Shown here: in pieces, positions 3,997 through 62,101 of the stretch
How the letters are laid out: each line of letters begins with the position of its first letter
How positions within the stretch are numbered: position 1 is the stretch's first letter
Assembly: GCA_964187785.1 (NCBI GenBank)
Contig: OZ076418.1
Location: 26,784,001-26,848,000, forward strand
Source: Amphiscolops sp. MND2022
Lineage: Eukaryota
Direction of reading: 5' to 3'
DNA length: 64,000 nt
Notes under the pieces: model-generated
The model's input: the letters and a program-made list of their open reading frames with translations, nothing else
The model's database searches: none
Told to the model about the DNA's origin: nothing
Position numbers and translations under genes: made by a program

Positions 3997-4103
3997 CGTT
4001 TGGGTTTTGTCAGCAGAGTTCTTCAGGAAGTTTCAATTTTGTTGATATCGAACCGTTTTGGTTCTGTCATCTCTTCTCTTGTCGATTGAACTCAGTTCCC
4101 AAA

Positions 4104-4295
4104 GACACAATAGCCCAAACTCCCAGAGATACAATAGCCCAATCTCCCAGAGACACAGTAGCCCAATCTCCCACAGACACAGTAGCCCAATCTCCCACAG
4201 ACACAGTAGCCCAATCTCCCAGAGACACAGTTGCCCAATCTCCCAGAGACACAGTAGCCCAATCTCCCAGAGTCACAATAGCCCAATCTTCCAGA
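4104..4295. repeat. Minisatellite, 8 x 24 bp (GACACAGTAGCCCAATCTCCCAGA) in the leader of BEL element 1
   Basis: Directly visible head-to-tail units with 0-4 substitutions and no spacers. Confidence 0.95.
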
Positions 4296-4394
4296 GACAC
4301 GAAATCAGAGACTCCAAGACCCAGTTCTTGGGCAATCTTCTGTTGTCTACCAACGAGTCGTCTTCTTCTAGTCCGGGTCGTCCACCAACGAGTC

Positions 4395-10760: not shown

Positions 10761-10790
10761 TAGTCTCCGCTGTGAATAGTCACAATTTTC

Positions 10791-10929
10791 CCTATTACAA
10801 ATCCTGCATTAGAACACATTGCGTTTTAACGGCCGCTTGCCTCGGATATAGGGCTAAGATATTCATGATGATATTTCTCACTTTTAGCCCTGAATAGGAG
10901 TTAGCGGGCGTTTTGTTTAAAAATAAAGT
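10791..10929. repeat. Copy of a dispersed repeat of about 140 bp, also found at 30365-30383 plus 31252-31376
   Basis: cctattacaaatcctgcattagaacacattgc...ttagccctgaata shared with 31271-31376; gttagcggg..tgtttaaaaataaagt shared with 30365/31252. Confidence 0.8.
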
Positions 10930-11005
10930 GAGGCATCATCTGGCTCAGCTCTAATAGTTTCAGTTCTGTTGGTCTAATTGGAGTCTGGTCTTCTCACTAA
11001 CATGG

Positions 11006-12847
11006 TGTCTGAAATGGATATTTGGCTATTTCTCGGGACCCAGAAATCGGATTGGCATCAAACTTAGCAGGGAAACAGATAAGTTATGCATGATTCAGCG
11101 CCCCTAAAACTTTCACTTTTTATCGGGACTTAGACTATCCGACGGGCATCCGAAGTTAACCCTATCTTAATACATGGGGTTTTCCCACTCTCCACACTAA
11201 AAATCGTCCCCCAGAAAAACTCAAGGAGCAAACCTCCTGGTTTTTTGGCCGTATAACTTTTGGACTTCACACTCTACTAATTCACAGTACTTTGGAACCC
11301 TTGCTGTTATTGGATGGAATTTTATGACAATAACAAAAATGAAGTTACTCACTGAATTGACGTGATAGGAACCGTTTCTCCTATTATTTGCAAACCGAGA
11401 GTTTATCCAGGCTTCTCTGGCTAGCCAATCGGTCTCTGTACCATTAATCACGTACGAAATCATCGATGTAGTCGCTGTACCCATTCTGTCTGACATTGTC
11501 AGGACGCAATGGGCTAATCCCCAAGGCAAGATTATACTGTCGCCGGTCTTCTGGATCGCCCAGTGAATATGTTTCAATCGCTCTCCGCCGCCCTCAAGCA
11601 GCTTCAACAGATCCACTAGGCGTCCACTGTCACGGCGAAGCTCACGGGCTAGCTCCGTGTGAGTGCACACCAGTCACAACTTCCATCCGGAGATGACTGT
11701 TGTAACTGATGGGAATGCTGGATCGAAGTCGACGTGCCACAGCGTCCATGATCGTCCAACAGCCACGAACAGGCATTCCTCATGCAAGTCGCAGTCTTGG
11801 TGCTCTTTAACCCTCGTTACGGCCCACGATGTTCCATTATCCACTGCGTTACACCAAATCTTCTCGTAGCAGTGCTCAAAGTGAGTAGCACCAAATTCTT
11901 TGCATTTCTTGACTTTCACGACTCTTGATCGACTCTTTTACGTAAAGTGGCTTCATTGCCAGAACATTTGGCCAAGAGTCTACCCCAGTTTTTGTCTACC
12001 AATCTAATAAGTGGCTCACGAACAAGTTTGGGAATTGGCAGATCGGGAGTATCAGGCAGCTCGCCTTTATTAATTTCCTTCATTGGTGTCACCAAATTGA
12101 CGCAAGTGATCAATGACACTATGTGATCGGCGAGATTATTGGCATCAATCTGGAAAACAAAACAGTGCATACATCTTCATATCAACTTGGAAATCAATCA
12201 TAGACATCAGGAATTCCAGAAAACATCAAAGAGACCAAACTCCTGGATTGAAACATGACGGAAATGATCCATTTGATGTATTCCTGTCTTCATTGCGACT
12301 AATTTGCATCAGCAAGACGTTCGGTAGTGAATTTCGTCATTTTAGGCTTTTTCGACTATTTTGTGCGAAACAGCCATATCGTGACTTGAGCAGAAGAGGG
12401 TGTCGACAACGAAATTTTCACCAGCAATTATATAACATGTAAAAGTCATATTAGCGAAGACAGGCCTAAATTGAGTTTGTTTTAACACTTTTAAACTCTA
12501 CTAAAGACTATTACTACAAATTGAATGCATATTTGTCGAGATTGCGTATATTGGTAAACGTGCTTTTTTGCCGAATTCAAATCAGCCAATCAAATTGCGC
12601 CATTTGTCAGTACTGACATGCTTCATTTCTCCATTATATATGTTCAGTTTTTTGCTTTGTTTTGACTTCTTATAGTTGCTTTTCGCGCTATTTGTCTGAA
12701 AAATTTCACCGCTTTATATTAAAGGACCTGTTTTACCTCGAACATTTCGGAGGACAATCCATCGGTGGACCGCCATCGGACGACAATCAAGGACGTAAAT
12801 TACTTCTGCAACTGTTGTTAATCCTACGAAGAGTGTCGGTGCGTACA
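11006..12847 (+). repeat. LTR1 (complete 5' LTR, 1842 bp)
   Basis: TGTCTGAAATGG ... GCGTACA followed by TTT and the PBS; colinear with 27998-29852. Confidence 0.93.
11221..12149 (-). pseudogene. Antisense JmjC-domain ORF in LTR1 (frameshift near 11918, TGG>TGA at 11674-11676)
   Basis: SWTLWHVDFD...ISGWKL*LV...IQKTGDSIILPWGLAHCVLT: HxD...K...H JmjC signature. Confidence 0.85.
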
Positions 12848-12850
12848 TTT

Positions 12851-12868
12851 TGGTCCGCCGACCCGGAC
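12851..12868 (+). promoter_or_regulatory. Primer-binding site (tRNA-Tyr-like), repeated after LTR2 and LTR3
   Basis: TGGTCCGCCGACCCGGAC, identical to the PBS of BEL element 1. Confidence 0.85.
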
Positions 12869-12921
12869 ACACTAAAATTCTTCAGTACTCCACTTCAAAT
12901 CGACAAGTTACTCACAAGAAA

Positions 12922-15900
12922 ATGACTACTGAAAAAGCAACAAAGGACATCATGAAGCTGAAGCGAGTGCACGGTGGACACAAGGCGGCTTTTACCCGTC
13001 TGACAACAAGTGTTGAAGATCTTCTCAGAGCTTCAATTGAAGATGATGAAAAGCTATGTGAAGCTGAAGGACTTTTGACCAGCTTAAACAGAAAAATGCT
13101 AGACATTTACAGATGGGATACAGACATTCAGCTGGAAAGAGAAGGCGAGGCTAAATTAGAAGACGATACAGAAGCTTCAACAACATTCGACGTCTCCTCT
13201 GGTATCACAATTGCTCGTCTAACTGCACTAAGTCACAATTACAAGAAACGAACTGCAGCACGAACAATTTCATTACACGAAGTAGTTCTTCTCCATCAAG
13301 TACAAGTAGCCTTAAACTACCCTAGCTACAATTACCCAGTTTCAGTGGTTTATATACAGAATGGAATTCCTTCAGAGATCTCTTCAACGCATCAGGAGAC
13401 TCCAACACACAGCTCAGTAACTCAGAGAAATTGAATTACTTGCGTGCCTGCGTCAAAGGTGATGCAGCAAAATTATTCAGCTCGCTCACCATCACAGATG
13501 CTAATTACAGTATCGCCGAGCGTTTGCTGACTGAAAGGTATGAAAATAAGCGTAGTATTGTTAACGCTCATCACAAAACCATCTGGTCCCAACCTTCTAT
13601 CAAGACAGAATCAGGAAGTGCGCTAAGAAAATTGTTAGAAACTACCAATGAAAATTTGTGAGCACTCCAAGAGCAGGTTCAAGGTACCGAGTATTGGGAC
13701 CCTCTTTTAGTCTTCTGGTTATGCGACTAGATGGACCCGGAATCCAGAAAGCAGTGGGAATTGGATAATACCGCTGGTACGGAGCTATTAACATGGAAAC
13801 AGCTGTCAAAGTTCCTTGACACTAGAAGTAGAGCACTTGAAACCAGCAGAACCAAGATGGTATCCAATACCAATCAATCACAGCCACCTCGTGAAAAGCG
13901 AGTTCAATTCTATACTGATTCAACAGTGTGTAGCCAAAATTGCACTGAAGAACACAAACTTCATGCTTGTCCCCAATTCAAGCAAATGTCAATTCCAGAT
14001 AGATATAACTGCGTGAAGACCAATCGGGCATGCTTCAGTTGTCTCCAATCTGGTCACAGCGCTTCCAAATGCCCATCCAAGTTTACTTGTCGCGAATGCA
14101 AACAAAGACATCGTACACTTCTACGCCGAACCCTCAAAGGCAATCAGGATAAAAAAGAAAATGCAGCAGGATTATTCAGTAATCTTCCAGACACAGCTTC
14201 AGAAGATACTTCAGAACTTGAGTAGACAGCAGATCAAGTTACATCGGGACATTGCAATGCCAGTGTACCAATCAACAATGTGTTGTTATCTAATGCTCTC
14301 GTATCAATCAAAGACTACTGGCAAGACTGTGAAGCTTCGAGCATTGCTTGATTTGGGTTCTCAAGCCAGTTTCATTACGGAAAAAAAGGCAGCAGCTCTG
14401 ATGCTCAAAGTGAAAAGAAGTCAAGTCGCAATCACCACTTTGGGAGCATCAGCTACTGAAAAGACGAAAGTGATATTAGCAACGAAGCTTAACAACACTG
14501 TGCCTGTTAATCTTCACGTCATCCCGAAAATAACAAATCAAGTGCCCACGAGTAAAGTCGATGTCTCTCAATTGCATCATATTCGCAATCTGAAACTTGC
14601 TGATCCAGCATTCAATACACCTGGAAAAAATGATGTACTACTTGGAGCTGATGTTCTCGAGGATGTGATGATGGAAGCCAAACTCAAGGATGGTGGTCTA
14701 TCAGTTCGTGACTCGATCTTCGGTTGGGTAGTGTCAGGCCCAGTGAAACCTCTTCAAGGAATGTGTATCACCTCTCATCATATTGCATTTGAACCCAACC
14801 ACGATACTGATCAATTGCTGTCTCGTCTATCGGAATTGGAGAATATGCCTGAGAAAAGACATATATCTTCAGAAGAAAAACGATGTGAAGAGCATTTTGA
14901 TCGCACTACCAAAAGAAAGGATGACGGACGTTTCATTGTGGAAATGCCCTTCAAGGAAGACTGTTCACAGCTTGGGCACAGCAAAACCTTAGCTATGCGG
15001 CGCTTTCTAAACCTTGAACGAAAGCTAATTCGTGACCAGTCCCTCCATGAACGTTACTCTGCATTCATCAAGGTATTCATCGACATGGGTCATCTCGAAA
15101 AGGTACCCATTTATGAACTGGAATTATCTCGCAATTGCTACCTTCCTCATCACTGTGTCACGAAGGAAAGCAGTTCAACAACAAAACTTCGAGTTGTCTT
15201 TGACGCTAGCGCAAAAACCACAAGCGGACTGTCTCTTAAAGATTGTTTGCTATTGGGGCCGAAATTGCAAGCTGACTTATTTCACATTCTAATACGATTT
15301 CGCTTCTTCAAGGTGGCAATGTCTGCTGACGTTGCTAAGATGTACAGGCAAGTGGAGCTATGCCCAAGGGATAAAGATTTACATAGACTTTTATGGCGAT
15401 TCCATCAAACAGAGTCAATTGGCACGTACAGAATGACACGAGTAACGTACGGCGTGGCTAGCTCTTCATACCACTCTATTTGCAGCCTCATGGAGAGTGC
15501 GCCAATTTTGAAGACACGCAGGAGTCTGTGCGTGATGCACTCACAAGGGACTTCTATGTGGACGACATCCTGACTGGTGCTAGCTCGGAGACGGAAGCAG
15601 TGGAGCTGCAAGACTGACTCATCAAGACACTGAAGAAGGGCCAACTTGACTTGCGAACATGGACCTGTTATCTGCCAGAACTCGTATTGAGGCTTCCACC
15701 AGAAAACCGTGAAGCGAATGAAGAATTCAAGTTTCGTGATGAGACACACACCATCAAGACGTTAGGCGTTGTCTGGAATCCTTCTAGCGACAAATTTACC
15801 TTCACAGTATCTCATCCTTCAAATGATCTCGATGAAGCAACCATCACTAAAAGAAAGATGTTAAGTGACATCGCCAAAATCTTCGATCCTCTCGGTTGGC

Positions 15901-16461
15901 TGTCACCTGTTTCACTAGAGCTAAAACACTTGTAGAACAGGTGTGGCAATGTCGAGTTGATTGGGATCAAAAACTTCCGACCGAATTAAAAACAGCCTAT
16001 CTTGATTGGAGAAGGAAACTCGAAGCCTTGAAGGACATTCAATTGCAAAGATTCTGCCTTCCAAGGAACAATCTGACAAAGTTGCACTACATGTATTCTG
16101 CGATGCATCAGAGAAAGGCTATGCTGCGTGCATCTACGTGGTAGCTGAAAATGATGATGGAGAAAGGACATCAAGGCTCCTAGCTGCCAAGTCTAGAGTG
16201 GCTCCCCTCAAAGTGCAATCAATACCTCGATTGGAGCTATGTGGTGCATTCTTGGGACAACGACTGCTCTCTTCAGTACTCCGAGAACTCTCCAAACTGA
16301 AGTTGGCAATTGTTCAGAGATTTGCCTGTTTTGCCTGGACCGATTCGACCATTGTATTGAGCTGGCTGAAGCAGGAACCCAATCACTGAACAACGTTTGC
16401 TACAAATCGAGTGGCGGAAATCCAGCAGGATAGCGAATTATACTGGCGACATGTCCCAACG
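12922..16461 (+). pseudogene. gag-pol copy 1 (gag, PR, RT, RNase H), truncated at the duplication junction
   Basis: NYLRACVKGDA (DUF1759-like), CFSCLQSGHSASKC, RALLDLGSQASFI, YLPHHCV...[40 protein letters not shown]; several frameshifts. Confidence 0.92.
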
Positions 16462-18210
16462 TTATGCCTGATTCAGCGCCCCTAAAACTTTCACTTTTTA
16501 TCGGGACTTAGACTATCCGACGGGCATCCGAAGTTAACCCTATCTTAATACATGGGGTTTTCCCACTCTCCACACTAAAAATCGTCCCCCAGAAAAACTC
16601 AAGGAGCAAACCTCCTGGTTTTTTGGCCGTATAACTTTTGGACTTCACACTCTACTAATTCACAGTACTTTGGAACCCTTGCTGTTATTGGATGGAATTT
16701 TATGACAATAACAAAAATGAAGTTACTCACTGAATTGACGTGATAGGAACCGTTTCTCCTATTATTTGCAAACCGAGAGTTTATCCAGGCTTCTCTGGCT
16801 AGCCAATCGGTCTCTGTACCATTAATCACGTACGAAATCATCGATGTAGTCGCTGTACCCATTCTGTCTGACATTGTCAGGACGCAATGGGCTAATCCCC
16901 AAGGCAAGATTATACTGTCGCCGGTCTTCTGGATCGCCCAGTGAATATGTTTCAATCGCTCTCCGCCGCCCTCAAGCAGCTTCAACAGATCCACTAGGCG
17001 TCCACTGTCACGGCGAAGCTCACGGGCTAGCTCCGTGTGGGTGCACACCAGTCACAACTTCCATCCGGAGATGACTGTTGTAACTGATGGGAATGCTGGA
17101 TCGAAGTCGACGTGCCACAGCGTCCATGATCGTCCAACAGCCACGAACAGGCATGCCTCATGCAAGTCGCAGTCTTGGTGCTCTTTAACCCTCGTTACGG
17201 CCCACGATGTTCCATTATCCACTGCGTTACACCAAATCTTCTCGTAGCAGTGCTCAAAGTGAGTAGCACCAAATTCTTTGCATTTCTTGACTTTCACGAC
17301 TCTTGATCGACTCTTTTACGTAAAGTGGCTTCATTGCCAGAACATTTGGCCAAGAGTCTACCCAGTTTTTGTCTACCAATCTAATAAGTGGCTCACGAAC
17401 AAGTTGGGGAATTGGCAGATCGGGAGTATCAGGCAGCTCGCCTTTATTAATTTCCTTCATTGGTGTCACCAAATTGACGCAAGTGATCAATGACACTATG
17501 TGATCGGCGAGATTATTGGCATCAATCTGGAAAACAAAACAGTGCATACATCTTCATATCAACTTGGAAATCAATCATAGACATCAGGAATTCCAGAAAA
17601 CATCAAAGAGACCAAACTCCTGGATCGAAACATGACGGAAATGATCCATTTGATGTATTCCTGTCTTCATTGCGACTAATTTGCATCAGCAAGACGTTCG
17701 GTAGTGAATCTCGTCATTTTAGGCTTTTTCGACTATTTTGTGTGAAACAGCCATATCGTGACTTGAGCAGAAGAGGGTGTCGACAACGAAATTTTCACCA
17801 GCAATTATATAACATGTAAAAGTCATATTAGCGAAGACAGGCCTAAATTGAGTTTGTTTTAACACTTTTAAACTCTACTAAAGTCTATTACTACAAATTG
17901 AATGCATATTTGTCGAGATTGCGTATATTGGTAAACGTGCTTTTTTGCCGAATTCAAATCAGCCAATCAAATTGCGCCATTTGTCAGTACTGACATGCTT
18001 CATTTCTCCATTATATATGTTCAGTTTTTTGCTTTGTTTTGACTTCTTATAGTTGCTTTTCGCGCTATTTGTCTGAAAAATTTCACCGCTTTATATTAAA
18101 GGACCTGTTTTACCTCGAACATTTCGAGTGGTCCGCCATCGGACGACAATCAAGGACGTAAATCACTTCTGCAACTGTTGTTAATCCTACGAAGAGTGTC
18201 GGTGCGTACA
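16462..18210 (+). repeat. LTR2 (lacks the first 78 bp)
   Basis: Starts at ttatgc, equivalent to 11084; ends GCGTACA plus PBS; near-identical to LTR1. Confidence 0.93.
16599..17526 (-). pseudogene. Antisense JmjC-domain ORF in LTR2
   Basis: Same peptide as in LTR1 with the same stop and frameshift plus one extra 1-bp deletion. Confidence 0.85.
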
Positions 18211-18284
18211 TTTTGGTCCGCCGACCCGGACACACTAAAATTCTTCAGTACTCCACTTCAAATCGACAAGTTACTCACAAGAAA

Positions 18285-20829
18285 ATGACTACTGAAAAAG
18301 CAACAATGGACATCATGAAGCTGAAGCGAGTGCACGGTGGACACAAGGCGGCTTTTACCCGTCTGACAACAAGTGTTGAAGATCTTCTCAGAGCTTCAAT
18401 TGAAGATGATGAAAAGCTATGTGAAGCTGAAGGACTTTTGACCAGCTTAAACAGAAAAATGCTAGACATTTACAGATGGGATACAGAAATTCAGCTGGAA
18501 AGAGAAGGCGAGGCTAAATTAGAAGCCGATACAGAAGCTTCAACAACATTCGACGTCTCCTCTGGTATCACAATTGCTCGTCTAACTGCACTAAGTCACA
18601 ATTACAAGAAACGAACTACAGCACGAACAATTTCATTACACGAAGTAGTTCTTCTCCATCAAGTACAAGTAGCCTTAAACTACCCTAGCTACAATTACCC
18701 AGTTTCAGTGGTTTATATACAGAATGGAATTCCTTTAGAGATCTCTTCAACGCATCAGGAGACTCCAACACACAGCTCAGTAACTCAGAGAAATTGAATT
18801 ACTTGCGTGCCTGCGTCAAAGGTGATGCAGCAAAATTATTCAGCTCGCTCACCATCACAGATGCTAATTACAGTATCGCCGAGCGTTTGCTGACTGGAAG
18901 GTATGAAAATAAGCGTAGTATTGTTAACGCTCATCACAAAACCATCTGGTCCCAACCTTCTATCAAGACAGAATCAGGAAGTGCGCTAAGAAAATTGTTA
19001 GAAACTACCAATGAAAATTTGTGAGCACTCCAAGAGCAGGTTCAAGGTACCGAGTATTGGGACCCTCTTTTAGTCTTCTGGTTATGCGACTAGATGGACC
19101 CGGAATCCAGAAAGCAGTGGGAATTGGATAATACCGCTGGTACGGAGCTATTAACATGGAAACAGCTGTCAAAGTTCCTTGACACTAGAAGTAGAGCACT
19201 TGAAACCAGCAGAACCAAGATGGTATCCAATGTCAATCAATCACAGCCACCTCGTGAAAAGCGAGTTCAATTCTATACTGATTCAACAGTGTGTAGCCAA
19301 AATTGCACTGAAGAACACAAACTTCATGCTTGTCCCCAATTCAAGCAAATGTCAATTCCAGATAGATATAACTGCGTGAAGACCAATCGGGCATGCTTCA
19401 GTTGTCTCCAATCTGGTCACAGCGCTTCCAAATGCCCATCCAAGTTTACTTGTCGCGAATGCAAACAAAGACATCGTACACTTCTACGCCGAACCCTCAA
19501 AGGCAATCAGGATAAAAAAGAAAATGCAGCAGGATTATTCAGTAATCTTCCAGACACAGCTTCAGAAGATACTTCAGAACTTGAGTAGACAGCAGATCAA
19601 GTTACATCGGGACATTGCAATGCCAGTGTACCAATCAACAATGTGTTGTTATCTAATGCTCTCGTATCAATCAAAGACTACTGGCAAGACTGTGAAGCTT
19701 CGAGCATTGCTTGATTTGGGTTCTCAAGCCAGTTTCATTACGGAAAAAAAGGCAGCAGCTCTGATGCTCAAAGTGAAAAGAAGTCAAGTCGCAATCACCA
19801 CTTTGGGAGCATCAGCTACTGAAAAGACGAAAGTGATATTAGCAACGAAGCTTAACAACACTGTGCCTGTTAATCTTCACGTCATCCCGAAAATAACAAA
19901 TCAAGTGCCCACGAGTAATGTCGATGTCTCTCAATTGCATCATATTCGCAATCTGAAACTTGCTGATCCAGCATTCAATACACCTGGATAAAATGATGTA
20001 CTACTTGGAGCTGATGTTCTCGAGGATGTGATGATGGAAGCCAAACTCAAGGATGGTGGTCTATCAGTTCGTGACTCGATCTTCGGTTGGGTAGTGTCAG
20101 GCCCAGTGAAACCTCTTCAAGGAATGTGTATCACCTCTCATCATATTGCATTTGAACCCAACCACGATACTGATCAATTGCTGTCTCGTCTATCGGAATT
20201 GGAGAATGTGCCTGAGAAAAGACATATATCTTCAGAAGAAAAACGATGTGAAGAGCATTTTGATCGCACTACCAAAAGAAAGGATGACGGACGTTTCATT
20301 GTGGAAATGCCCTTCAAGGAAGACTGTTCACAGCTTGGGCACAGCAAAACCTTAGCTATGCGGGGCTTTCTAAACCTTGAACGAAAGCTAATTCGTGACC
20401 AGTCCCTCCATGAACGTTACTCTGCATTCATCAAGGTATTCATCGACATGGGTCATCTCGAAAAGGTACCCATTTATGAACTGGAATTATCTCGCAATTG
20501 CTACCTTCCTCATCACTGTGTCACGAAGGAAAGCAGTTCAACAACAAAACTTCGAGTTGTCTTTGACGCTAGCGCAAAAACCACAAGCGGACTGTCTCTT
20601 AAAGATTGTTTGCTAGTGGGGCCGAAATTGCAAGCTGACTTATTTCACATTCTAATACGATTTCGCTTCTTCAAGGTGGCAATGTCTGCTGACGTTGCTA
20701 AGATGTACAGGCAAGTGGAGCTATGCCCAAGGGATAAAGATTTACATAGACTTTTATGGCGATTCCATCAAACAGAGTCAATCGGAAATCCAGCAGGATA
20801 GCGAATTATACTGGCGACATGTCCCAACG
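18285..20829 (+). pseudogene. gag-pol copy 2, jumping from mid-RT (20782) to the RNase H tail (20783-20829)
   Basis: Junction gagtcaat|cggaaatcc joins positions equivalent to 15419 and 16415 of copy 1. Confidence 0.92.
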
Positions 20830-22578
20830 TTATGCCTGATTCAGCGCCCCTAAAACTTTCACTTTTTATCGGGACTTAGACTATCCGACGGGCATCCGAA
20901 GTTAACCCTATCTTAATACATGGGGTTTTCCCACTCTCCACACTAAAAATCGTCCCCCAGAAAAACTCAAGGAGCAAACCTCCTGGTTTTTTGGCCGTAT
21001 AACTTTTGGACTTCACACTCTACTAATTCACAGTACTTTGGAACCCTTGCTGTTATTGGATGGAATTTTATGACAATAACAAAAATGAAGTTACTCACTG
21101 AATTGACGTGATAGGAACCGTTTCTCCTATTATTTGCAAACCGAGAGTTTATCCAGGCTTCTCTGGCTAGCCAATCGGTCTCTGTACCATTAATCACGTA
21201 CGAAATCATCGATGTAGTCGCTGTACCCATTCTGTCTGACATTGTCAGGACGCAATGGGCTAATCCCCAAGGCAAGATTATACTGTCGCCGGTCTTCTGG
21301 ATCGCCCAGTGAATATGTTTCAATCGCTCTCCGCCGCCCTCAAGCAGCTTCAACAGATCCACTAGGCGTCCACTGTCACGGCGAAGCTCACGGGCTAGCT
21401 CCGTGTGGGTGCACACCAGTCACAACTTCCATCCGGAGATGACTGTTGTAACTGATGGGAATGCTGGATCGAAGTCGACGTGCCACAGCGTCCATGATCG
21501 TCCAACAGCCACGAACAGGCATGCCTCATGCAAGTCGCAGTCTTGGTGCTCTTTAACCCTCGTTACGGCCCACGATGTTCCATTATCCACTGCGTTACAC
21601 CAAATCTTCTCGTAGCAGTGCTCAAAGTGAGTAGCACCAAATTCTTTGCATTTCTTGACTTTCACGACTCTTGATCGACTCTTTTACGTAAAGTGGCTTC
21701 ATTGCCAGAACATTTGGCCAAGAGTCTACCCAGTTTTTGTCTACCAATCTAATAAGTGGCTCACGAACAAGTTGGGGAATTGGCAGATCGGGAGTATCAG
21801 GCAGCTCGCCTTTATTAATTTCCTTCATTGGTGTCACCAAATTGACGCAAGTGATCAATGACACTATGTGATCGGCGAGATTATTGGCATCAATCTGGAA
21901 AACAAAACAGTGCATACATCTTCATATCAACTTGGAAATCAATCATAGACATCAGGAATTCCAGAAAACATCAAAGAGACCAAACTCCTGGATCGAAACA
22001 TGACGGAAATGATCCATTTGATGTATTCTTGTCTTCATTGCGACTAATTTGCATCAGCAAGACGTTCGGTAGTGAATCTCGTCATTTTAGGCTTTTTCGA
22101 CTATTTTGTGTGAAACAGCCATATCGTGACTTGAGCAGAAGAGGGTGTCGACAACGAAATTTTCACCAGCAATTATATAACATGTAAAAGTCATATTAGC
22201 GAAGACAGGCCTAAATTGAGTTTGTTTTAACACTTTTAAACTCTACTAAAGTCTATTACTACAAATTGAATGCATATTTGTCGAGATTGCGTATATTGGT
22301 AAACGTGCTTTTTTGCCGAATTCAAATCAGCCAATCAAATTGCGCCATTTGTCAGTACTGACATGCTTCATTTCTCCATTATATATGTTCAGTTTTTTGC
22401 TTTGTTTTGACTTCTTATAGTTGCTTTTCGCGCTATTTGTCTGAAAAATTTCACCGCTTTATATTAAAGGACCTGTTTTACCTCGAACATTTCGAGTGGT
22501 CCGCCATCGGACGACAATCAAGGACGTAAATCACTTCTGCAACTGTTGTTAATCCTACGAAGAGTGTCGGTGCGTACA
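20830..22578 (+). repeat. LTR3 (lacks the first 78 bp)
   Basis: Offset 4368 from LTR2 and almost identical to it, same gtcccaacg|ttatgcc junction. Confidence 0.93.
20967..21894 (-). pseudogene. Antisense JmjC-domain ORF in LTR3
   Basis: Translated ORF pieces identical to those of LTR2. Confidence 0.85.
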
Positions 22579-22651
22579 TTTTGGTCCGCCGACCCGGACA
22601 CACTAAAATTCTTCAGTATTCACTTCAAATCGACAAGTTACTCACAAGAAA

Positions 22652-25600
22652 ATGACTACTGAAAAAGCAACAAAGGACATCATGAAGCTGAAGCGAGTGC
22701 ACGGTGGACACAAGGCGGCTTTTACCCGTCTGACAACAAGTGTTGAAGATCTTCTCAGAGCTTCAATTGAAGATGATGAAAAGCTATGTGAAGCTGAAGG
22801 ACTTTTGACCAGCTTAAACAGAAAAATGCTAGACATTTACAGATGGGATACAGAAATTCAGCTGGAAAGAGAAGGCGAGGCTAAATTAGAAGCCGATACA
22901 GAAGCTTCAACAACATTCGACGTCTCCTCTGGTATCACAATTGCTCGTCTAACTGCACTAAGTCACAATTACAAGAAACGAACTACAGCACGAACAATTT
23001 CATTACACGAAGTAGTTCTTCTCCATCAAGTACAAGTAGCCTTAAACTACCCTAGCTATAATTACCCAGTTTCAGTGGTTTATATACAGAATGGAATTCC
23101 TTTAGAGATCTCTTCAACGCATCAGGAGACTCCAACACACAGCTCAGTAACTCAGAGAAATTGAATTACTTGCGTGCCTGCGTCAAAGGTGATGCAGCAA
23201 AATTATTCAGCTCGCTCACCATCACAGATGCTAATTACAGTATCGCCGAGCGTTTGCTGACTGGAAGGTATGAAAATAAGCGTAGTATTGTTAACGCTCA
23301 TCACAAAACCATCTGGTCCCAACCTTCTATCAAGACAGAATCAGGAAGTGCGCTAAGAAAATTGTTAGAAACTACCAATGAAAATTTGTGAGCACTCCAA
23401 GAGCAGGTTCAAGGTACCGAGTATTGGGACCCTCTTTTAGTCTTCTGGTTATGCGACTAGATGGACCCGGAATCCAGAAAGCAGTGGGAATTGGATAATA
23501 CCGCTGGTACGGAGCTATTAACATGGAAACAGCTGTCAAAGTTCCTTGACACTAGAAGTAGAGCACTTGAAACCAGCAGAACCAAGATGGTATCCAATAC
23601 CAATCAATCACAGCCACCTCGTGAAAAGCGAGTTCAATTCTATACTGATTCAACAGTGTGTAGCCAAAATTGCACTGAAGAACACAAACTTCATGCTTGT
23701 CCCCAATTCAAGCAAATGTCAATTCCAGATAGATATAACTGCGTGAAGACCAATCGGGCATGCTTCAGTTGTCTCCAATCTGGTCACAGCGCTTCCAAAT
23801 GCCCATCCAAGTTTACTTGTCGCGAATGCAAACAAAGACATCGTACACTTCTACGCCGAACCCTCAAAGGCAATCAGGATAAAAAAGAAAATGCAGCAGG
23901 ATTATTCAGTAATCTTCCAGACACAGCTTCAGAAGATACTTCAGAACTTGAGTAGACAGCAGATCAAGTTACATCGGGACATTGCAATGCCAGTGTACCA
24001 ATCAACAATGTGTTGTTATCTAATGCTCTCGTATCAATCAAAGACTACTGGCAAGACTGTGAAGCTTCGAGCATTGCTTGATTTGGGTTCTCAAGCCAGT
24101 TTCATTACGGAAAAAAAGGCAGCAGCTCTGATGCTCAAAGTGAAAAGAAGTCAAGTCGCAATCACCACTTTGGGAGCATCAGCTACTGAAAAGACGAAAG
24201 TGATATTAGCAACGAAGCTTAACAACACTGTGCCTGTTAATCTTCACGTCATCCCGAAAATAACAAATCAAGTGCCCACGAGTAATGTCGATGTCTCTCA
24301 ATTGCATCATATTCGCAATCTGAAACTTGCTGATCCAGCATTCAATACACCTGGATAAAATGATGTACTACTTGGAGCTGATGTTCTCGAGGATGTGATG
24401 ATGGAAGCCAAACTCAAGGATGGTGGCCTATCAGTTCGTGACTCGATCTTCGGTTGGGTAGTGTCAGGCCCAGTGAAACCTCTTCAAGGAATGTGTATCA
24501 CCTCTCATCATATTGCATTTGAACCCAACCACGATACTGATCAATTGCTGTCTCGTCTATCGGAATTGGAGAATGTGCCTGAGAAAAGACATATATCTTC
24601 AGAAGAAAAACGATGTGAAGAGCATTTTGATCGCACTACCAAAAGAAAGGATGACGGACGTTTCATTGTGGAAATGCCCTTCAAGGAAGACTGTTCACAG
24701 CTTGGGCACAGCAAAACCTTAGCTATGCGGGGCTTTCTAAACCTTGAACGAAAGCTAATTCGTGACCAGTCCCTCCATGAACGTTACTCTGCATTCATCA
24801 AGGTATTCATCGACATGGGTCATCTCGAAAAGGTACCCATTTATGAACTGGAATTATCTCGCAATTGCTACCTTCCTCATCACTGTGTCACGAAGGAAAG
24901 CAGTTCAACAACAAAACTTCGAGTTGTCTTTGACGCTAGCGCAAAAACCACAAGCGGACTGTCTCTTAAAGATTGTTTGCTAGTGGGGCCGAAATTGCAA
25001 GCTGACTTATTTCACATTCTAATACGATTTCGCTTCTTCAAGGTGGCAATGTCTGCTGACGTTGCTAAGATGTACAGGCAAGTGGAGCTATGCCCAAGGG
25101 ATAAAGATTTACATAGACTTTTATGGCGATTCCATCAAACAGAGTCAATTGGCACGTACAGAATGACACGAGTAACGTACGGCGTGGCTAGCTCTTCATA
25201 CCACTCTATTTGCAGCCTCATGGAGAGTGCGCCAATTTTGAAGACACGCAGGAGTCTGTGCGTGATGCACTCACAAGGGACTTCTATGTGGACGACATCC
25301 TGACTGGTGCTAGCTCGGAGACGGAAGCAGTGGAGCTGCAAGACTGACTCATCAAGACACTGAAGAAGGGCCAACTTGACTTGCGAACATGGACCTGTTA
25401 TCTGCCAGAACTCGTATTGAGGCTTCCACCAGAAAACCGTGAAGCGAATGAAGAATTCAAGTTTCGTGATGAGACACACACCATCAAGACGTTAGGCGTT
25501 GTCTGGAATCCTTCTAGCGACAAATTTACCTTCACAGTATCTCATCCTTCAAATGATCTCGATGAAGCAACCATCACTAAAAGAAAGATGTTAAGTGACA

Positions 25601-27888
25601 TCGCCAAAATCTTCGATCCTCTCGGTTGGCTGTCACCTGTTTCACTAGAGCTAAAACACTTGTAGAACAGGTGTGGCAATGTCGAGTTGATTGGGATCAA
25701 AAACTTCCGACCGAATTAAAAACAGCCTATCTTGATTGGAGAAGGAAACTCGAAGCCTTGAAGGACATTCAATTGCAAAGATTCTGCCTTCCAAGGAACA
25801 ATCTGACAAAGTTGCACTACATGTATTCTGCGATGCATCAGAGAAAGGCTATGCTGCGTGCATCTACGTGGTAGCTGAAAATGATGATGCAGAAAGGACA
25901 TCAAGGCTCCTAGCTGCCAAGTCTAGAGTGGCTCCCCTCAAAGTGCAATCAATACCTCGATTGGAGCTATGTGGTGCATTCTTGGGACAACGACTGCTCT
26001 CTTCAGTACTCCGAGGACTCTCCAAACTGAAGTTGGCAATTGTTCAGAGATTTGCCTGTTTTGCCTGGACCGATTCGACCATTGTATTGAGCTGGCTGAA
26101 GCAGGAACCCAATCACTGGACAACGTTTGCTACAAATCGAGTGGCGGAAATCCAGCAGGATAGCGAATTATACTGGCGACATGTACCAACGCATGAGAAT
26201 CCAGCTGATATAGCATCTCGTGGGCTCAACCCGTCTCTTTTGGCAGAAAACGAGCTTTGGTGGTCTGGCCCCAAATGGCTCAAATTTGGACAAATTCCAG
26301 AGCCCTATCATTCATTGGAAACGAAGGAAGAATGCAAGAAGACAGCACCCTCCACACAACTTCTTCTAGCAAGGACTACTTCTGAGGGAATTTCGTCTGA
26401 AGGAGTCATCGACTTATCAAAACAGAATTCATTGATGAAGGCCATTCGAATTGTTGCCTTCATTCGGAGGTTCATCAATCGCCTGAGGAAGAATCTCAAT
26501 CAATTGCCCATGTACATCACAAGGGAAGAATCATCAGAAGCTCTCAAGATTCTCCTTCGACTAGAGCAACAGAAATTTTTTGAAGAGGAAATTAGAACAC
26601 TCGAAAAGGATGTTCAAGTGAGAAAGACTAGCAGACTTGTCAAATTATACCCTTTTCTTCATGAAGGCGTCTTGTGCGTGGGAGGACGATTAATTCACGC
26701 CACCCTGGCAGATGAAGCAAAATATCCAAGAATCGTTCCCGCCGAAAGTGATCTGGCAGAGTTAATTATCAAAAACTCTCACAGAATCACCCTACATGGG
26801 GGCACTTACCAAGTCATCGCCCACATTAGACAGCATTTTTGGATCCCTGCATTCAGGAATCTCGTCCGGAATACAATCATGAATTGTACTACATGTTCAC
26901 GATTAACATCCAAACCTTGTTATCCTCTTATGGGGGATCTCCCAAAGCAACGAGTGGACATTCCCAATCGGGCGTTTCAAGATGTAGGCTTGGTTTTTGC
27001 TGGACCTTTTTTGTGCAAGGGTCCTAATTGCACTTCAACCACAGCCTATTTGGCCATTTTTACATGCTTTGCAAGCCGTGCTGTACATCTAGAAGCTGTA
27101 TCCGATTTAACAGCACAAGCATGCATTGCTGCCTTGAGACGCTTTATGTCCCGACGAGGCGGTCCTGACACAATATACTCTGACAATGGGAGTAACTTTG
27201 TTGGAGCTCAAGCTGAGATCAAAACATTGCAACATTTGCTCCAGAGCGAACATGAGAATTCTCTACAAGCAACAGCTGCCGGATTGCAAATAAAGTGGTC
27301 TTTCATTCCCCTCGAGCGCCACACTTTGGAGGACTTTGGGCGGCAGCAGTGAAGAGTGCAAAGAAACATCTGCGTCGAACAATGGGTAATAATGTGCTCA
27401 ACTTCGAAGAACTTTCCACACTATTCTGCCACATCGAAAGTGTACTTAATTCCAGACCTTTTGGAACAATCTCAGAAGATCCAAAGGAGGAAACTCCGAT
27501 AACGCCTGCAGATTTGTGTAGTGGTGGAAAGTTGGATCTAATCCCTTCACAAAGTTGAAGCACGCCATCAAATATAGAAGATTGCTCCCCCATGAAACGT
27601 TGGTCATTCACACAAAATTTACTACATGGGTTCTGGAAACGGTGGTCTAAGGAATATGTGTCATCTCTTCAAGAACGAGGAAAATGGACATCGGGGAAGG
27701 AAAATCTTAAACTCGGGGATATTGTATATATTACAGACGACAATACACCGCCCTTGCAATGGCCCATAGGACGAGTAATACATCTTTACAGTGGACCTGA
27801 CAGATTCGTCCGTGTTGTTAAGATCAAAACAACAACTGGAATTTACAATCATGCAGTCCACAAATCACAAAGGATTCCATTAGCTTGA
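22652..27888 (+). pseudogene. gag-pol copy 3, full length (gag, PR, RT, RNase H, integrase, DUF5641-like C-terminus) but frameshifted
   Basis: All motifs of copy 1 plus the integrase HHCC region (HRITLHGG...CTTC), [32 protein letters not shown] and FWKRWSKEY. Confidence 0.93.
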
Positions 27889-27980
27889 TGCTAATCTATT
27901 GAAATTCGAATGTTGGGCCGTATACCGTATACACTTATAGCAGATAGTCTAACCCTGTAAATTATTATTCACCAATCTTC

Positions 27981-27997
27981 AAGACAGGCGGGCGGTA
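27981..27997 (+). promoter_or_regulatory. Polypurine tract
   Basis: AAGACAGGCGGGCGGTA immediately before the TGT of LTR4. Confidence 0.8.
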
Positions 27998-29852
27998 TGT
28001 CTAAAATGGATATTTGGCTATTTCTCGGGACCCAGCAATCGGATTGGCACCAAATTTGGCAGGGAAACAGATAATTTTATGCCTGATTCAGCGCCTTTGA
28101 AACCCTTACCTTTTATTGTGATTTAGACTATCCGACGGGCATCCGAAGTTATACCCTAACTTAATACATGGGGTTTTCCCACTCTCCACAATAAAAATCG
28201 TCCCCCAGAAAAACTCAAGGAGCAAACCTCCTGGTTTTTTTGGCCGTATAACTTTTGGACTTCACACTCTACTTATGCACAGTACTTTGGAATCCTTCCT
28301 GTTATTGGATGGAATTTGATGACAATAACAAAAATGAAGTTACTCACTACTCAATTGACCTGATAGGAACTCTTTCCCGTATTATTTGCAAACCGAGAGT
28401 TTATCCAGGCTTCTCTGGCTAGCCTCTTGGTCTCTGTACCATTAATCACGTACGAAATCATCGATGTAGTCGCTGTACCCATTCTGTCTGACATTGTCAG
28501 AACGCAATGGGCTAATCCCCAAGGCAAGATTATACTGTCGCCGGTCTTCTGGATCGCCCAGTGAATTTGTTTTTGTCGCTCTCCGCCGCCCTCAAGCAGC
28601 TTCAACAGATCCACTAGGCGTCCACTGTCACGGCAAAGCTCACGGGCTAGCTCCGTTTGGGTGCACACCAGCCACAACTTCCATCCGGAGATGACTGTTG
28701 TAACTGATGGGGATGCTGGATCGAAGTCGACGTGCCACAGCGTCCATGATCGTCCAACAGCCACAAACAGGCATGCCTCATGCAAATCGCAGTCTTGGTT
28801 CTCTTTACCCCTCGTTACGGCCCACGATGTTCCATCATCCACTGCGTTACACCAGTTCTTCTCGTAGCAGTGCTAAAAGCGAGTAGCACCAAATCCTTTG
28901 CATTTCTTGACTTTCATGTACTCTTGATCGACTCTTTTAAGTAAAGTGGCTTCATTGCCAAAAAATTTGGCCAAGAATCTACCCCAGTTTTTGCCCAATT
29001 TGGGGAATGGACAGATCGGGAGTATCAGGCAGCTCGCCTTTATTAATTTCCTTAGTTGGTGTCAGCAAATTGCCGCAAGTGATCAATGACACTATGTGAT
29101 CGACGAGATTATTGACATCCATCTGGAAAACAAAACAGTGCAAACATCGTCATATCAACTGGGAAATCAATCATAGACATCAGGAATTCCAAAAAACATC
29201 AAAGAGACCAAACTCCTGGCAATGACCATTTTTCATCAAATGGCAATTTCAATGACCAATGCTGGTTCGAAACATCACGGAAATGAACCATTTATTGTAT
29301 TCCTGTATTCATTGCGACTAATTTGCATCAGCAAGACGTTCGATAGTGAATTTCATCATTTTCGACATTTTCGACTAGTTTGTGTGAAACAGCCAAATCG
29401 TGACTTGAGCAGAAGAGGGTGTTGACAACGAAACTTTCACCAGCAATTATATAACATGTAAAAGTCATATTAGTGAAGACAGGCCTAAGTTGAGTTTGTT
29501 TTATCTTTTTTAAACTCTACTAAAGACTATTACTATAAATTGAATGCATATTTGTCGAGTTAGCGTATATTGGTAAAAGTGCTTTTTTGCCGAATTCAAA
29601 TCAGCCAATCAAATTGCGCCATTTGTCAGTACTGACATGCTTCATTTCTCCATTATATTTGTTCAGTTTTTTGCATTGTTTTGACTTCTTATAGTTGCTT
29701 TTCGCGCTATTTGTCTGAAGAAATTCACCGCTTTATATTAAAGCACCTATTTTACCTCGAACATTTCGAGTGGTCCGCCATCGGACGACAGTCAAGGACG
29801 TAAATTACTTCTGCAAATGTTGTTAATCCTACGAAGAGTGTCGGCGCGTTCA
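27998..29852 (+). repeat. LTR4 (complete 3' LTR, 1855 bp), clearly more diverged from LTR1-3 than they are from each other
   Basis: TGTCTAAAATGG ... GCGTTCA followed by the TSD; many substitutions and several indels relative to LTR1. Confidence 0.93.
28351..29122 (-). pseudogene. Antisense JmjC-domain ORF in LTR4; the catalytic core is uninterrupted (ORF 28351-28842)
   Basis: CLFVAVGRSWTLWHVDFDPASPSVTTVISGWKLWLV...IHWAIQKTGDSIILPWGLAHCVLT in one frame; His 28732-28734, Asp 28726-28728, Lys 28678-28680, His 28507-28509; an upstream TAG and a deletion of about 26 bp disrupt the N-terminal part. Confidence 0.9.
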
Positions 29853-30383
29853 CATGGCACCAATTTAGAAACGATTTATGTCATCTGAAAAGTGACTAAA
29901 TGAAATGACCGGCTAACGCACAAACAACTCGCCTGTTTTCACAAATTGGCTGGTTAACTAGACTTTCATCGGTCTTTGACTTTTGAGCTCCTTAATGAAG
30001 TTCATTCTGTTTTGCTGGTACACGACTTAAACTATACCAAACCTCCACTCCAAACAACACACTGAAATCTCAGTTGCATATCCTCCAAAAGTATTGATGC
30101 ACCAAGTGGGACATTACCCTACCCGCCGTAGTCAGTCTTTACCGATCTGTCATGCAAACCCAAGTTTTACATGGAGCACCAATATGGGCACAAAAGAATA
30201 TCAAATCTACAACTTCCAAAACAGTATCGTGAGATCGATGTTCAAGAACTGTTTATCGCCACCTATTAGTTCAGCTGACGCTCTCATCGGGATCCCAACA
30301 AATGACCTTTTCTGCATGAGGCCTTGATTTTCTTGGTTACATTTTTAGCGGAAAATGTGCCGGTGTTAGCGGGTGTCTTGTTT

Positions 30384-31251: not shown

Positions 31252-31502
31252 TGTTTAAAAATAAAGTTTACCTATTACAAATCCTGCATTAGAACACATT
31301 GCCTTTTAACGGACGCTTGCCTAGGATATAGGGCTAAGATTTTCAAAATGATATTTCTTACCTTTAGCCCTGAATAACTTGAGTGCATGAGGCCTTGATT
31401 TACTTGTTGTCATAAATGCTGAAGAATTTGAAGAGTTTTAAAATGCTTTGGATTTCAGATTTTGGTTTGAAAAACTTTCTCGAAAATGTAGTGGATTGAA
31501 GA

Positions 31503-37500: not shown

Positions 37501-40500
37501 CGAAAGGTTATGTTTTTATGCGCAATTTTTGTCGTATTTTTCGACACAAAACGTTTCTCAGAAAAACTTTCGGTATTATGCTATAACGCAGTTTACTGTG
37601 GTTTTTGGTCTCGCACCAGCCAATAACAGCAGATTTTGATCAAATGTAGCTTAATCATTTGCTGAGAAACCTTTTTCAACGTCACTTTAAAATCCATTCT
37701 TTCAAAACGCCAATGTACGTGATCACTGTGTAGAATTGATCATAGTCTGAATCAAATTCAAGGTTGCATCTGAAAGTACTTTGTATTCCAAAGTGAGCAT
37801 CTCTCTTCCTTTCTTTCTGGGTTAGTTTGCCAGAGAGGCACCAGTACTTGGGAGACGATATGGAGGTGAATTCGGGCAGAACTGTTCGTCTGGAGCGAGA
37901 CATTGCTACTCTTCCTTTCATCGCCCAAAGCTCCATCGTTCTACTTCCCAAACAGTCCATTCCAATGTTAGTTTCCATTCCAAAATCCCTTTTAATAATG
38001 TTTCTGCGTAAATTGAGATGTTACAGAAGCCGTAAATGTGATCTTTTTCAGACTTCGATCGTCTCTCACTTTCGTCGTCAATTCTGGTAGCAGCCAATTC
38101 TATTTTACTATCACAACTAGTTCAATCTGCGGCAACGATTGTCTGCTACAGTTGACTTTTTCGCAGTCACCTGTTTATTCAAATTTCCTAATGTCGAAAA
38201 ATTAAGTGCTTATGTGAAAGCTAAAAGTTTTGAAGTAGCTGTTTCTCAAATATTGTGTCATTTAATGATCTAGTTCCATTAATCCGTGTTTTGACGTATC
38301 AGTTTTTAGCCTTTATATTCATCTAGTTCTTTATATTCATCTAGTTTTCAATAATGGATAATTTTAGGCTTAATTTGTAGCCTAAGTTGGCCGCAAGACA
38401 TTAGCTTTAGGAACTCTCATTATGTATGTCGTGATCTTTGATAACCCTTCTCAAGTTGTCATTCTATCCCAGGTCCGTAAATTGATTTTAGGATTGATTT
38501 TTTTAGGATTCCTCTGGTTTTAGGTACTTTAATCGCCAGAGAGACGTGGCCCTATTTCGAAGCATACTAGCGGGTGATAAGACGTTTGTCCTGCTGCCAG
38601 TCCTAGAATCCCACCCCCATTCTTTCTATCGCAGCTCAGCCAGGGCGTACGCCAATTTCGGAACTGTGGCCGAGGTTGTCATGTCGGCCGAAGACGATGA
38701 CCAGGAAGTGTTCAAAGTCGTGGCTGAAGGCCGAGAACGTTGTGAGGTCTGTACTAATTGTTTAGGCACTTACGATTCGATTGTATTCTCTCGAATTCTA
38801 ATTTTTTCCCGGAGATACATGATACAAATGTCCGTCGCAGAGCGAAAAGAAGAAAGATTTGGTCAGAAATTTTAAATATTTAATATCTCCCTAAATACGC
38901 TCATCAGAGAAACGAACGTCCTATCGTGGGCTTGAAAGGTTTAAAATTGGGTTTTCTTTTTGATTTGGTGAGCCCTTGTCGCCTCGCGCCCGTTCTCCAA
39001 AATATTTGTTTTTGTCGTACCAAGTTGAAAAAAAATTGATGCGCTGCCTTAAAGTATTGCTGGTTTAATTCGTGATTAGAACTGTCATTGATAATGAATA
39101 GCGGTTTTCAACTCATAAAAGCCCAATAATATTTTACAGGTGTTAGAACACCTGGAAACGTCAACACCTGATGGAGTTATCAAGTCAGTGAGAGTTCGGA
39201 TCCTGCCAGATAACAATTTGCCTTACAACATGTTCCATTCTTTGGAAGAGAGCTTCTCTCTGCAAAGTGCTTCTAGTCACAAACTTCGTCAGCTGTGTCA
39301 GTCTACAAGAGTTCCTGTGTGGGTAGTCTGTCTTTACGACGTGTATCGCATTATGCGCCAAATAAGAAATGTCTTGAGCCAATTGTTCATGAATGAAAGT
39401 GGAATGGCAAAGTTGTCAGAAGATCCCAGTGATTTTTCCTTCCTAGTTGCAAGTTTTTTGCCCCTTTCGCACCGTGTGAAGTACAAGCTGCTGAGTTGTG
39501 GGTGTGCTTTGCAAAGGTTGAACTTGGAACTGCAGTTTTTGAAGCATTGTCAGTACTTGTTTTGTGTTGTGTGCAAGCACAAGATAGCATCTATCTCCGA
39601 GATCATTGTCATGTCCAACACTGGTGCCTTGGCTACTTTTGTCAACCCTGGGGGCATCATCTACGAGACACTGACGTTGAATAAAATTTGTGGCAAAGTC
39701 ACATGTGTGGGAATTCCTCAGACTGAAAACAGGTTCGATTTAGTTGTCATTAGAGCATGCACCAGATATAATTTAGCTTAATCGATTCATCGTTCAAAAT
39801 AACCGTTGAACAGGCATCATATTCGTTCACCAAAGAAAGGCGATTCTGAACAAAAAATTGTTGCCATTAATATTTCAACTGAAAGTCAATCGAATGATCA
39901 TTGCAGAAAATAGCTTCCGCGAACTTTACCAAAATATGACCGAAAGTTTACGAAATTTTGTCTGAACCGGCTGTTGTAGCCTTTCATTTGTACTTCAGTT
40001 TGTTTTTAGACCATTGTAGGGAGCATCTGCTCATTGATTGGGCTCGGGTCTAACTGTCAACTACTTATCGCTGTAATCGTTTAATTTTTAAAAATCGATT
40101 AAGATAATTTTAACCAATTAACTGGACCAGGATATCGTTGGCATTCAATCTCGGATATATCTGTAATTATGCTTTTTAAGCCAGTTAAATGAAATGTTCA
40201 GGTCAGTTTGTTAATGTCCAGTTGAATGAAATTCAACCGATCTTTCTGGAAAATCGGTGTTTGGCACGGAAACCTAATCAACATTGTTAAAACTTTTACG
40301 CTCAAAGTTCCTGAAAATGCCCTGGGACGAATACTATATAATTAGCGATGATGCTTGAATAAATTGGGTTTGAAAACAATAAAAAATGAATCATTTATCT
40401 AATCGTTTTTTGAATCGAATTGTTTCACTGATGACTGAACCCCTTATTATTTCTGCGATAGCAGGAATAATATAGAAATCTCCCGAAAGATGCAACTTTT

Positions 40501-57324: not shown

Positions 57325-57497
57325 TTTAGGTTTCTTAGAAAGTCCATAATTATCTTGCCTAAACCTAAATGAGAAACGCAGCTGTGACAAAGTTTCAATA
57401 AAGTAGCTGTATTATTCAGATCAAACACAAAAACTAAACAAGCTGAACAAGATTACATAATAGCGTAATACTTAGCTTGCATAAGAAGAAATCAACA
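57325..57497 (-). repeat. 3' LTR of the Gypsy element
   Basis: Direct repeat of 62102-62274; starts TGTTGA on the minus strand after the PPT. Confidence 0.9.
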
Positions 57498-57633
57498 CGG
57501 CTTCCTTCCTCCAAGACGGAGTCCACATGTAGGGCGATGTGATCATCAGGTTACACTAGCTTACAACTGCGAGTTTATTGGTAAAATAAAACTTACAAAA
57601 ACGTTTTTTTTAAAAGAAGAAAGTTTAAAATGT

Positions 57634-62100: not shown

Positions 62101-62101
62101 T

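Follow-up and report, generated by a model that had tools for sequence, protein, structure and literature searches.

An antisense JmjC gene in the long terminal repeats of a BEL/Pao retrotransposon of Amphiscolops and its relatives in other LTR elements

The 64,000-nucleotide stretch of Amphiscolops sp. MND2022 DNA analysed here (positions 26,784,001 to 26,848,000 of contig OZ076418.1, assembly GCA_964187785.1; hereafter the window) contains one BEL/Pao (Belpaoviridae) LTR retrotransposon, extending from 11006 to 29852 and bordered by a 5-bp target-site duplication. Each of its 1.85-kb LTRs holds a stand-alone JmjC reading frame on the antisense strand. Comparison of these frames with copies elsewhere in the genome supports the conclusion that the JmjC gene is kept in replicating lineages by purifying selection and is lost by neutral decay after insertion. 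The element family almost certainly carries a functional accessory JmjC gene.

The element and its broken JmjC frames

Comparison of the window with itself reveals a repeat of 1.75-1.85 kb that is present four times (starts at 11006, 16462, 20830 and 27998). The two outer copies, LTR1 and LTR4, have TG...CA ends and identical five bases at both flanks (Table 1). These ends, the target-site duplication, the purine tract preceding the 3′ LTR and the gag-protease-RT-RNase H-integrase order are those of a BEL/Pao element, as are the Pao markers DUF1759, DUF1758, Peptidase_A17 and DUF5641. Pfam matches of the internal frames in the window are Peptidase_A17, DUF1758, rve and Integrase_H2C2. A primer-binding-site-like motif follows LTR1, LTR2 and LTR3. 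The element itself is dead: its complete gag-pol has about six frame changes and as many as six stops.

LTR2 and LTR3 both lack the first ~77 bases and each of them stands after a truncated pol. They differ from each other at 1 of 1749 bases and from LTR1 at 11-12; between LTR1 and LTR4 the count is 113 of 1802. Given these 1-12 differences per 1749 bases, LTR1 to LTR3 appear to be tandem duplicates that were made long after insertion, an assembly artefact being the alternative. We therefore rejected their use as three independent witnesses and counted them once. The four-way LTR comparison on which the first-pass annotation had relied is thus reduced to a two-way comparison of LTR1 with LTR4, although its observation that the lesions are unshared between the outer LTRs stands.

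Table 1. Parts of the BEL/Pao element and its JmjC frames, in window coordinates
Feature	Position	Strand	Remarks
Left target-site duplication	11001-11005	+	CATGG; matched by 29853-29857
LTR1 (5′ LTR)	11006-12847	+	TG...CA; 1.84 kb; then a primer-binding-site-like motif (no tRNA match assigned)
First internal unit	12848-16461	+	gag and partial pol; stops short of integrase
LTR2	16462-18210	+	apparent tandem duplicate of the 5′ LTR without its first ~77 bases
Second internal unit	18211-20829	+	gag and a shorter part of pol
LTR3	20830-22578	+	apparent tandem duplicate; 1 difference from LTR2 over 1749 bases
BEL/Pao gag-pol	22907-27885	+	full-length but broken
Purine-rich tract	27983-27997	+	immediately 5′ of the 3′ LTR
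LTR4 (3′ LTR)	27998-29852	+	TG...CA; 1.85 kb; 6.3% different from LTR1
Right target-site duplication	29853-29857	+	CATGG
JmjC frame, LTR1	11356-12149	-	broken; start codon absent where the reference frame begins; 1 nt lost at codon 77 (~11920); in-frame stop at codon 159 (11674-11676)
JmjC frame, LTR2	16734-17526	-	broken; the two breaks of LTR1 and a 1-nt loss at codon 55 (~17363)
JmjC frame, LTR3	21102-21894	-	broken; the two breaks of LTR1 and a 1-nt loss at codon 55 (~21731)
JmjC frame, LTR4	28351-29122	-	broken; aligned to the references over 28354-29122; 26-nt loss at reference codon 43 (~28995); in-frame stop at codon 92 (28873-28875)

Lesions were called by aligning each window copy to natural unbroken copies found elsewhere in the genome. 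Four of these references (L002, L003, L005 and L008) returned identical lists of breaks, and a fifth one, L021 (67% identical), returned the same stops with a noisy gap pattern. From the letters of the window, it had been proposed that LTR1 to LTR3 carry a TGA at the tryptophan of KLW and a 1-nt loss at DQE(Y)MK, and that LTR4 carries a TAG at F(E)HC and a deletion of about 26 bp near 28995. All four lesions are real and correspond to reference codons 159, 77, 92 and 43, respectively. However, the list was incomplete, as it missed the absent start codon of LTR1 to LTR3 and the loss at codon 55 in LTR2 and LTR3. Alignment to the natural references also found no lesion common to LTR1 and LTR4, as had been claimed. 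The LTR4 frame still holds the HxD (~28734-28726) and the distal His (~28509-28507), and a pyrimidine tract followed by AG lies just upstream of its start codon in the manner of a splice acceptor. Unshared breaks by themselves are ordinary and expected for any gene inside an LTR. As they are uninformative alone, the argument for maintenance is carried by the natural unbroken copies and by the contrast in selection described below.

Other repeats and gene fragments are present in the window. A second Pao-like element remnant on the minus strand (732-3872 and 384-1120) includes a perfect 370-bp tandem duplication and an array of 24-nt units, open in several frames (4073-4336). A 113-nt repeat occurs once on each side of the BEL/Pao element (10784-10896 and 31264-31376, 91% alike). 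The host exon at 39119-39781 (+) has a weak LON_substr_bdg match and may be cereblon-like. A broken Ty3/gypsy pol on the minus strand (57321-62275) is located between two 178-nt repeats that are 93% alike, and an 80-nt tandem array follows it (62437-63217).

Unbroken copies and selection on the JmjC frame

In a search of the same genome with the open 173-aa piece of LTR4, all 150 scored loci matched, among 452 candidates. A natural start-to-stop frame of exactly 265 aa is present at five of the 30 loci fetched (L002, L003, L005, L008 and L009). The frame of about 265 aa that the first-pass annotation had pieced together from complementary lesions therefore exists in natural form and its reconstruction is unnecessary. 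L015 and L021 have open frames of 266 aa. The unbroken JmjC frame of L002 lies in a solo LTR flanked by a target-site duplication of its own, and L021 is probably another solo LTR. Young copies, which had been named as something to look for, do occur in this genome: in one family-A element, which has a target-site duplication, a single open gag-pol frame of 1657 aa goes together with LTRs that are 99.3% identical, and a family-B element has LTRs 98.6% identical and a frame of 1613 aa. In the insertion L035 (L008/L015), a 225-bp duplication over the start of the JmjC frame is common to both LTRs, so that it must have been inherited through replication, with the full frame kept behind the duplication. 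Many other JmjC copies in the genome are broken. Among five other LTR pairs, the unbroken frame is in the 5′ LTR of three, in the 3′ LTR of one and in neither LTR of the fifth, which fits neutral decay.

Broken family-A JmjC fragments form a tandem array with a spacing of ~1.2 kb (L023-L028; C9:11606262-11618714), and a host RNA methyltransferase gene (Methyltrn_RNA_3; L116:4659-5804) lies ~1.5-2.5 kb from the solo LTR with an unbroken JmjC frame.

Both LTRs of a fresh insertion are identical, and the differences between them therefore date from after insertion. LTR1 and LTR4 are flanked by the same 5-bp duplication, and the whole-LTR tree groups them together with bootstrap 100, on a short branch and with near-equal branches. 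Their JmjC frames differ with a dN/dS of 1.22 (p 0.58), and the differences are spread over the three codon positions as 15/16/15. Pooled over six family-A pairs, the changes within insertions comprise 120 non-synonymous and 36 synonymous ones (pN/pS 0.98, p 0.85). Of the 12 pairs of different family-A insertions that could be measured, in contrast, 10 have a dN/dS of 0.09-0.15 (L005/L008: p 6e-17), and the differences by codon position are 11/16/66 for L005/L003. The five pairs with L021 have saturated dS and are given no ratio; L050/L076, listed among the between-insertion pairs, is one insertion and was left out of the count. Two close pairs, L003/LTR1 and L003/LTR4, have ratios of 0.45-0.46, as expected where decay after insertion dominates. 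Codon positions 1 and 2 diverge less than the upstream LTR sequence and position 3 diverges more, and this third-position excess is limited to the JmjC frame and absent in the flanking LTR sequence. Family B follows the same trend but more weakly, with 0.70 within six insertions and 0.28-0.52 in eight between-insertion pairs. Because the gene is neutral within insertions and purified between them, it is maintained in the active lineage and decays after insertion. The proposal that the frame was intact when the element inserted, had been kept in the active lineage and decayed only afterwards is thus supported by the selection contrast and by the natural unbroken copies.

This conclusion has to be weighed against two other readings of the same copies. 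If LTR1 and LTR4 came from different insertions or had been gene-converted, their unshared breaks would be uninformative on the state at insertion. The 6.3% divergence between them is only slightly lower than that of LTR4 from L003/L004 (6.7-6.9%), and a tree of the ORF only groups them with a support of just 0.42, the branch of LTR1 being twice as long as that of LTR4. However, the matching 5-bp duplications, the whole-LTR tree and differences that lack the synonymous excess typical of two active lineages make such an origin highly improbable. The broken state of all four window copies and of many others could also suggest that the frame is a passenger of host origin that does nothing for the element, or that the apparent selection reflects some other constraint on the LTR. 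We find this barely credible, as it is largely refuted by a third-position excess that stops at the limits of the frame and by a dN/dS of ~0.1 between insertions versus ~1 within them; moreover, the JmjC frame does not overlap pol, and its catalytic residues are kept in nine element families.

The predicted protein and its distribution

By fold and motif, the protein is predicted to be a JmjC iron/2-oxoglutarate oxygenase, and the JmjC label given to it at first sight holds in the alignment, the profile match, the predicted structure and the structural matches. In our alignment of 23 family proteins, in which identity between element families is 18-25%, both His are invariant (23/23) and the Asp and the Lys are each present in 22 of 23. 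The family-A relative L021 lacks the Asp, yet its frame of 266 aa is open. The HxD...K...H of the family aligns to that of PHF8/KDM7A, where the Thr three residues before HxD and the Lys correspond too. A tyrosine located seven residues before the Lys in KDM7A/PHF8, which we take to bind 2-oxoglutarate, is replaced in the family. The profile search of the PDB yields seven sequences, all of them PHF8 or KDM7A of the KDM7 group (best E 9e-06). Single-sequence searches find KDM7A at just E 0.39-0.58 for family A and unrelated matches for family B. The Pfam JmjC model (PF02373) scores 24.2-24.4 bits in family B members against a curated cut-off of 24 and matches 13 of the 23 aligned members at E up to 0.1; on the broken pieces of the window and on unbroken family-A copies, Pfam gives no JmjC match. 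It also finds no PHD, CXXC, zinc finger or other reader domain in the 265-aa frame, and no codon periodicity indicative of an upstream coding exon within the LTR is present over the 729 bases upstream of the frame.

The predicted structure of a natural copy (pLDDT 82, pTM 0.83) has its best match among 48,161 chains in PHF2 (Z 14.7, rmsd 3.9, 220 aligned), followed by KDM2A (13.6), ceKDM7A (13.5), JMJD6 (13.4), FIH (13.2), JMJD5 (13.1) and TYW5 (13.0), and the top 17 matches are all JmjC proteins. Foldseek ranks TYW5 and JMJD5 first. Demethylases and hydroxylases are hardly separated by the structural scores, those of the hydroxylases lying within ~1.5 Z of the best match. The JmjC/cupin proteins returned by a search of a viral structure library come from giant viruses and phages and are 9-14% identical, with no sign in that library of a close viral donor. 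Several families end with a basic tail that would suit nuclear import or chromatin. Judged by the sequence profile, the nearest relatives are predicted to be the KDM2/7 proteins, to which we do not assign the protein as a member.

Related antisense JmjC genes are found in six more Pao families and in two env-bearing Ty3/gypsy families. Twenty further loci, a non-random sample picked for long open frames or divergence, include 12 in Pao elements, 5 in env-bearing Ty3/gypsy elements and 3 with no nearby pol, namely L002, L021 and L099; the JmjC frame is antisense in all 17 loci with pol. Families A, B and B2 carry it within long LTRs. Its place in A3, C, D and E is between pol and a short 3′ LTR (210-325 bp, 97-100% identical), the frame found in family E being a back part of 157 aa. 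In the two gypsy families it lies between pol and an env-like gene with a signal-like start, a furin-like site and a late hydrophobic stretch, and the LTRs are 444-504 bp long, one pair being 100% identical. The start Met of families A, A2, C, F and G has a pyrimidine tract and AG directly or a few bases upstream. At L099 (4278-8909), a relative of the JmjC frame of family F, which gypsy elements carry, stands beside zinc-finger-like and other frames, with no reverse transcriptase, and this locus is possibly a DNA element.

In the pol tree, A, B and B2 form one group (100/99), and a grouping of A with A3 is rejected (p-AU 6e-06). In the JmjC tree it is A and A3 that belong together, and a grouping of A with B and B2 is rejected (p-AU 0.023). 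The groups to be compared were chosen once the similarities had already been seen, and some of the branches are long. The in-LTR position of the gene tracks the pol lineage. The conflict between the two trees suggests, but does not prove, that the JmjC cargo has been exchanged between element families.

The family is also present outside this assembly. A protein search with a natural copy retrieved 19 proteins, of which three are full-length and 64-69% identical; for one of these three, the Amphiscolops assembly has no match above 68%, so that the family must occur in one further genome at least. When 1.8 billion representatives were searched with the profile, 314 clusters reached an E of 0.001 or lower and 93 an E of 1e-10. 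Out of 149 outside proteins examined, 80 span the four key sites, with HxD/E...H present in 62 of these and the Lys in addition in 58. Pfam detected no reader domain among the 31 outside proteins scanned. In one outside protein (P0016), the back half is a family-A JmjC and the front half, to judge from its motif, may be SGNH hydrolase-like.

Possible role and comparison with known systems

The protein is very likely an active oxygenase. Whether it acts as a histone demethylase against silencing is a closer call, to which we give slightly less than an even chance. Histone methylation is a main route of retrotransposon silencing in eukaryotes, and a protein that removes a repressive histone methyl mark would help transcription of the element. 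Expression would rely on an antisense transcript that begins in or close to the LTR and is probably spliced. The pyrimidine tract and AG at the start Met suggest such splicing, and an intron on the antisense strand would survive reverse transcription of the sense RNA. At ~29735-29745 in LTR4, ~110 bases from its end, a sense polyadenylation-like signal overlaps an antisense TATA-like word; the latter is a candidate start of the antisense transcript. The older place of the gene was probably between pol and a short 3′ LTR, and a later shift of the LTR boundary would have engulfed it in the A/B pol lineage. If the purine tract moved from after the 5′ end of the gene to a position right behind pol, the in-LTR layout would arise from the internal one. 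If the frame lies in U3, the inherited copy would be that of the 3′ LTR. The gene may moreover have been exchanged between element families.

Several observations do not sit easily with a histone demethylase. Specificity and targeting are unexplained in a protein with no PHD, zinc finger or other reader domain, the structural ranking barely splits demethylases from hydroxylases, the KDM7A/PHF8 tyrosine is replaced, the window's own family has no Pfam JmjC match, family-A relative L021 lacks the Asp, and purification is weaker in family B and in the close family-A pairs. The main rival is an active JmjC oxygenase with a non-histone substrate. Like JMJD5, JMJD6, FIH or TYW5, it would hydroxylate or demethylate RNA/tRNA, a protein of the host defence or a protein of the element. 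The stand-alone architecture resembles that of small hydroxylases, whose Z scores of 13.0-13.4 are within ~1.5 of the best match and two of which, TYW5 and JMJD5, are placed first by Foldseek; an orchid gypsy lineage has an AlkB-type RNA demethylase that is active in vitro (PMC9289625). On the other hand, the profile matches solely KDM7-group proteins, the HxD, the preceding Thr and the Lys align to PHF8/KDM7A, and the basic tails of several families suit nuclear import or chromatin, so we consider a non-histone substrate unlikely, though a serious contender. The missing KDM2/7-type tyrosine and the open frame of L021 would also be compatible with a non-catalytic protein that binds methyl marks or silencing proteins or acts as their decoy. 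A non-enzymatic role of this kind is reportedly played by fission-yeast Epe1. For the present family it seems quite improbable, since three metal ligands and the Lys are kept across families at ~20% identity and in 58 of the 80 outside proteins that span the four sites.

Our broader proposal is that the LTR retroelements of this host lineage share an ancient, stand-alone anti-silencing JmjC histone demethylase. BEL/Pao elements and gypsy elements with env would trade it, invariably in antisense orientation, and one Pao lineage would have moved it into its LTR. We put it forward tentatively, as something less probable than its opposite. If it is true, each insertion carries two copies, and wherever a solo LTR remains, the host is left with a whole gene for a chromatin eraser. 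Solo LTRs that contain the full gene would seed the host genome with enzyme genes, and a JmjC gene under selection in nine or more families of a single genome would open histone-level counter-silencing to direct tests with a small enzyme. The LTR pair also provides a built-in neutral control, which separates selection at the level of the element from decay in the host.

Element-borne erasers of DNA and RNA marks are already known, and it is the JmjC cargo that is unusual. No JmjC in an LTR retrotransposon was found in the mostly openly accessible literature searched, and a word search for Jumonji, demethylase and dioxygenase found none of them in a survey of metazoan elements with env (PMC13524379). 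The present protein resembles the KDM2/KDM7 group (PHF8, KDM7A/KIAA1718, PHF2 and KDM2A) in its predicted fold (Z 13.5-14.7), in HxD...H and in the Thr and Lys positions, and the KDM7 group provides the sole PDB matches of the family profile. In contrast to that group, it is only 265 aa long and 11-14% identical, neither a PHD nor a CXXC nor a C-terminal helical domain was found in it, and one active-site tyrosine is replaced; it is also multi-copy and element-borne, and its activity is predicted.

In the plant Ty3/gypsy elements Grande, RIRE2 and Retand, the stretch from pol to the 3′ LTR holds additional ORFs in antisense orientation (PMC7264820, PMC11963269). These are lineage-conserved accessory genes downstream of pol, as in our families A3, C, D and E, but they encode TRP28 or proteins of no assigned function, whereas here the gene is JmjC, is carried by BEL/Pao elements and lies entirely within both LTRs in three families. 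Antisense promoters have been described in or near the 3′ LTRs of HTLV and several retrotransposons (PMC7264820). TET/JBP dioxygenases in fungal DNA transposons, for which escape from silencing has been proposed (PMC12730594), are likewise mark-erasing enzymes of the iron/2-oxoglutarate type that occur in many element lineages and have passed between them; they differ in concerning DNA transposons, fungi and DNA methylation rather than LTR retroelements and a JmjC domain. Orchid Ty3/gypsy elements with an AlkB m6A demethylase ORF (PMC9289625) are also LTR retrotransposons with an extra 2-oxoglutarate oxygenase gene. However, that gene is a recent capture close to host genes with an RNA substrate shown, whereas ours is JmjC and far from any cellular gene found. 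The endogenized giant viruses of Amoebidium contain KDM4-like JmjC genes proposed to counter silencing (PMC11244446), which are similarly stand-alone, free of reader domains and carried by a genomic parasite, but these are multi-exon genes of KDM4 type in insertions of giant DNA viruses. Finally, rotifer retroelements share enzymatic ORF3s (GDSL esterase, DEDDy exonuclease) and also env (PMC5408684). Although these are not JmjC, they are reminiscent of the present case in that unrelated lineages of retroelements within a single invertebrate genome carry accessory enzymes of the same types.
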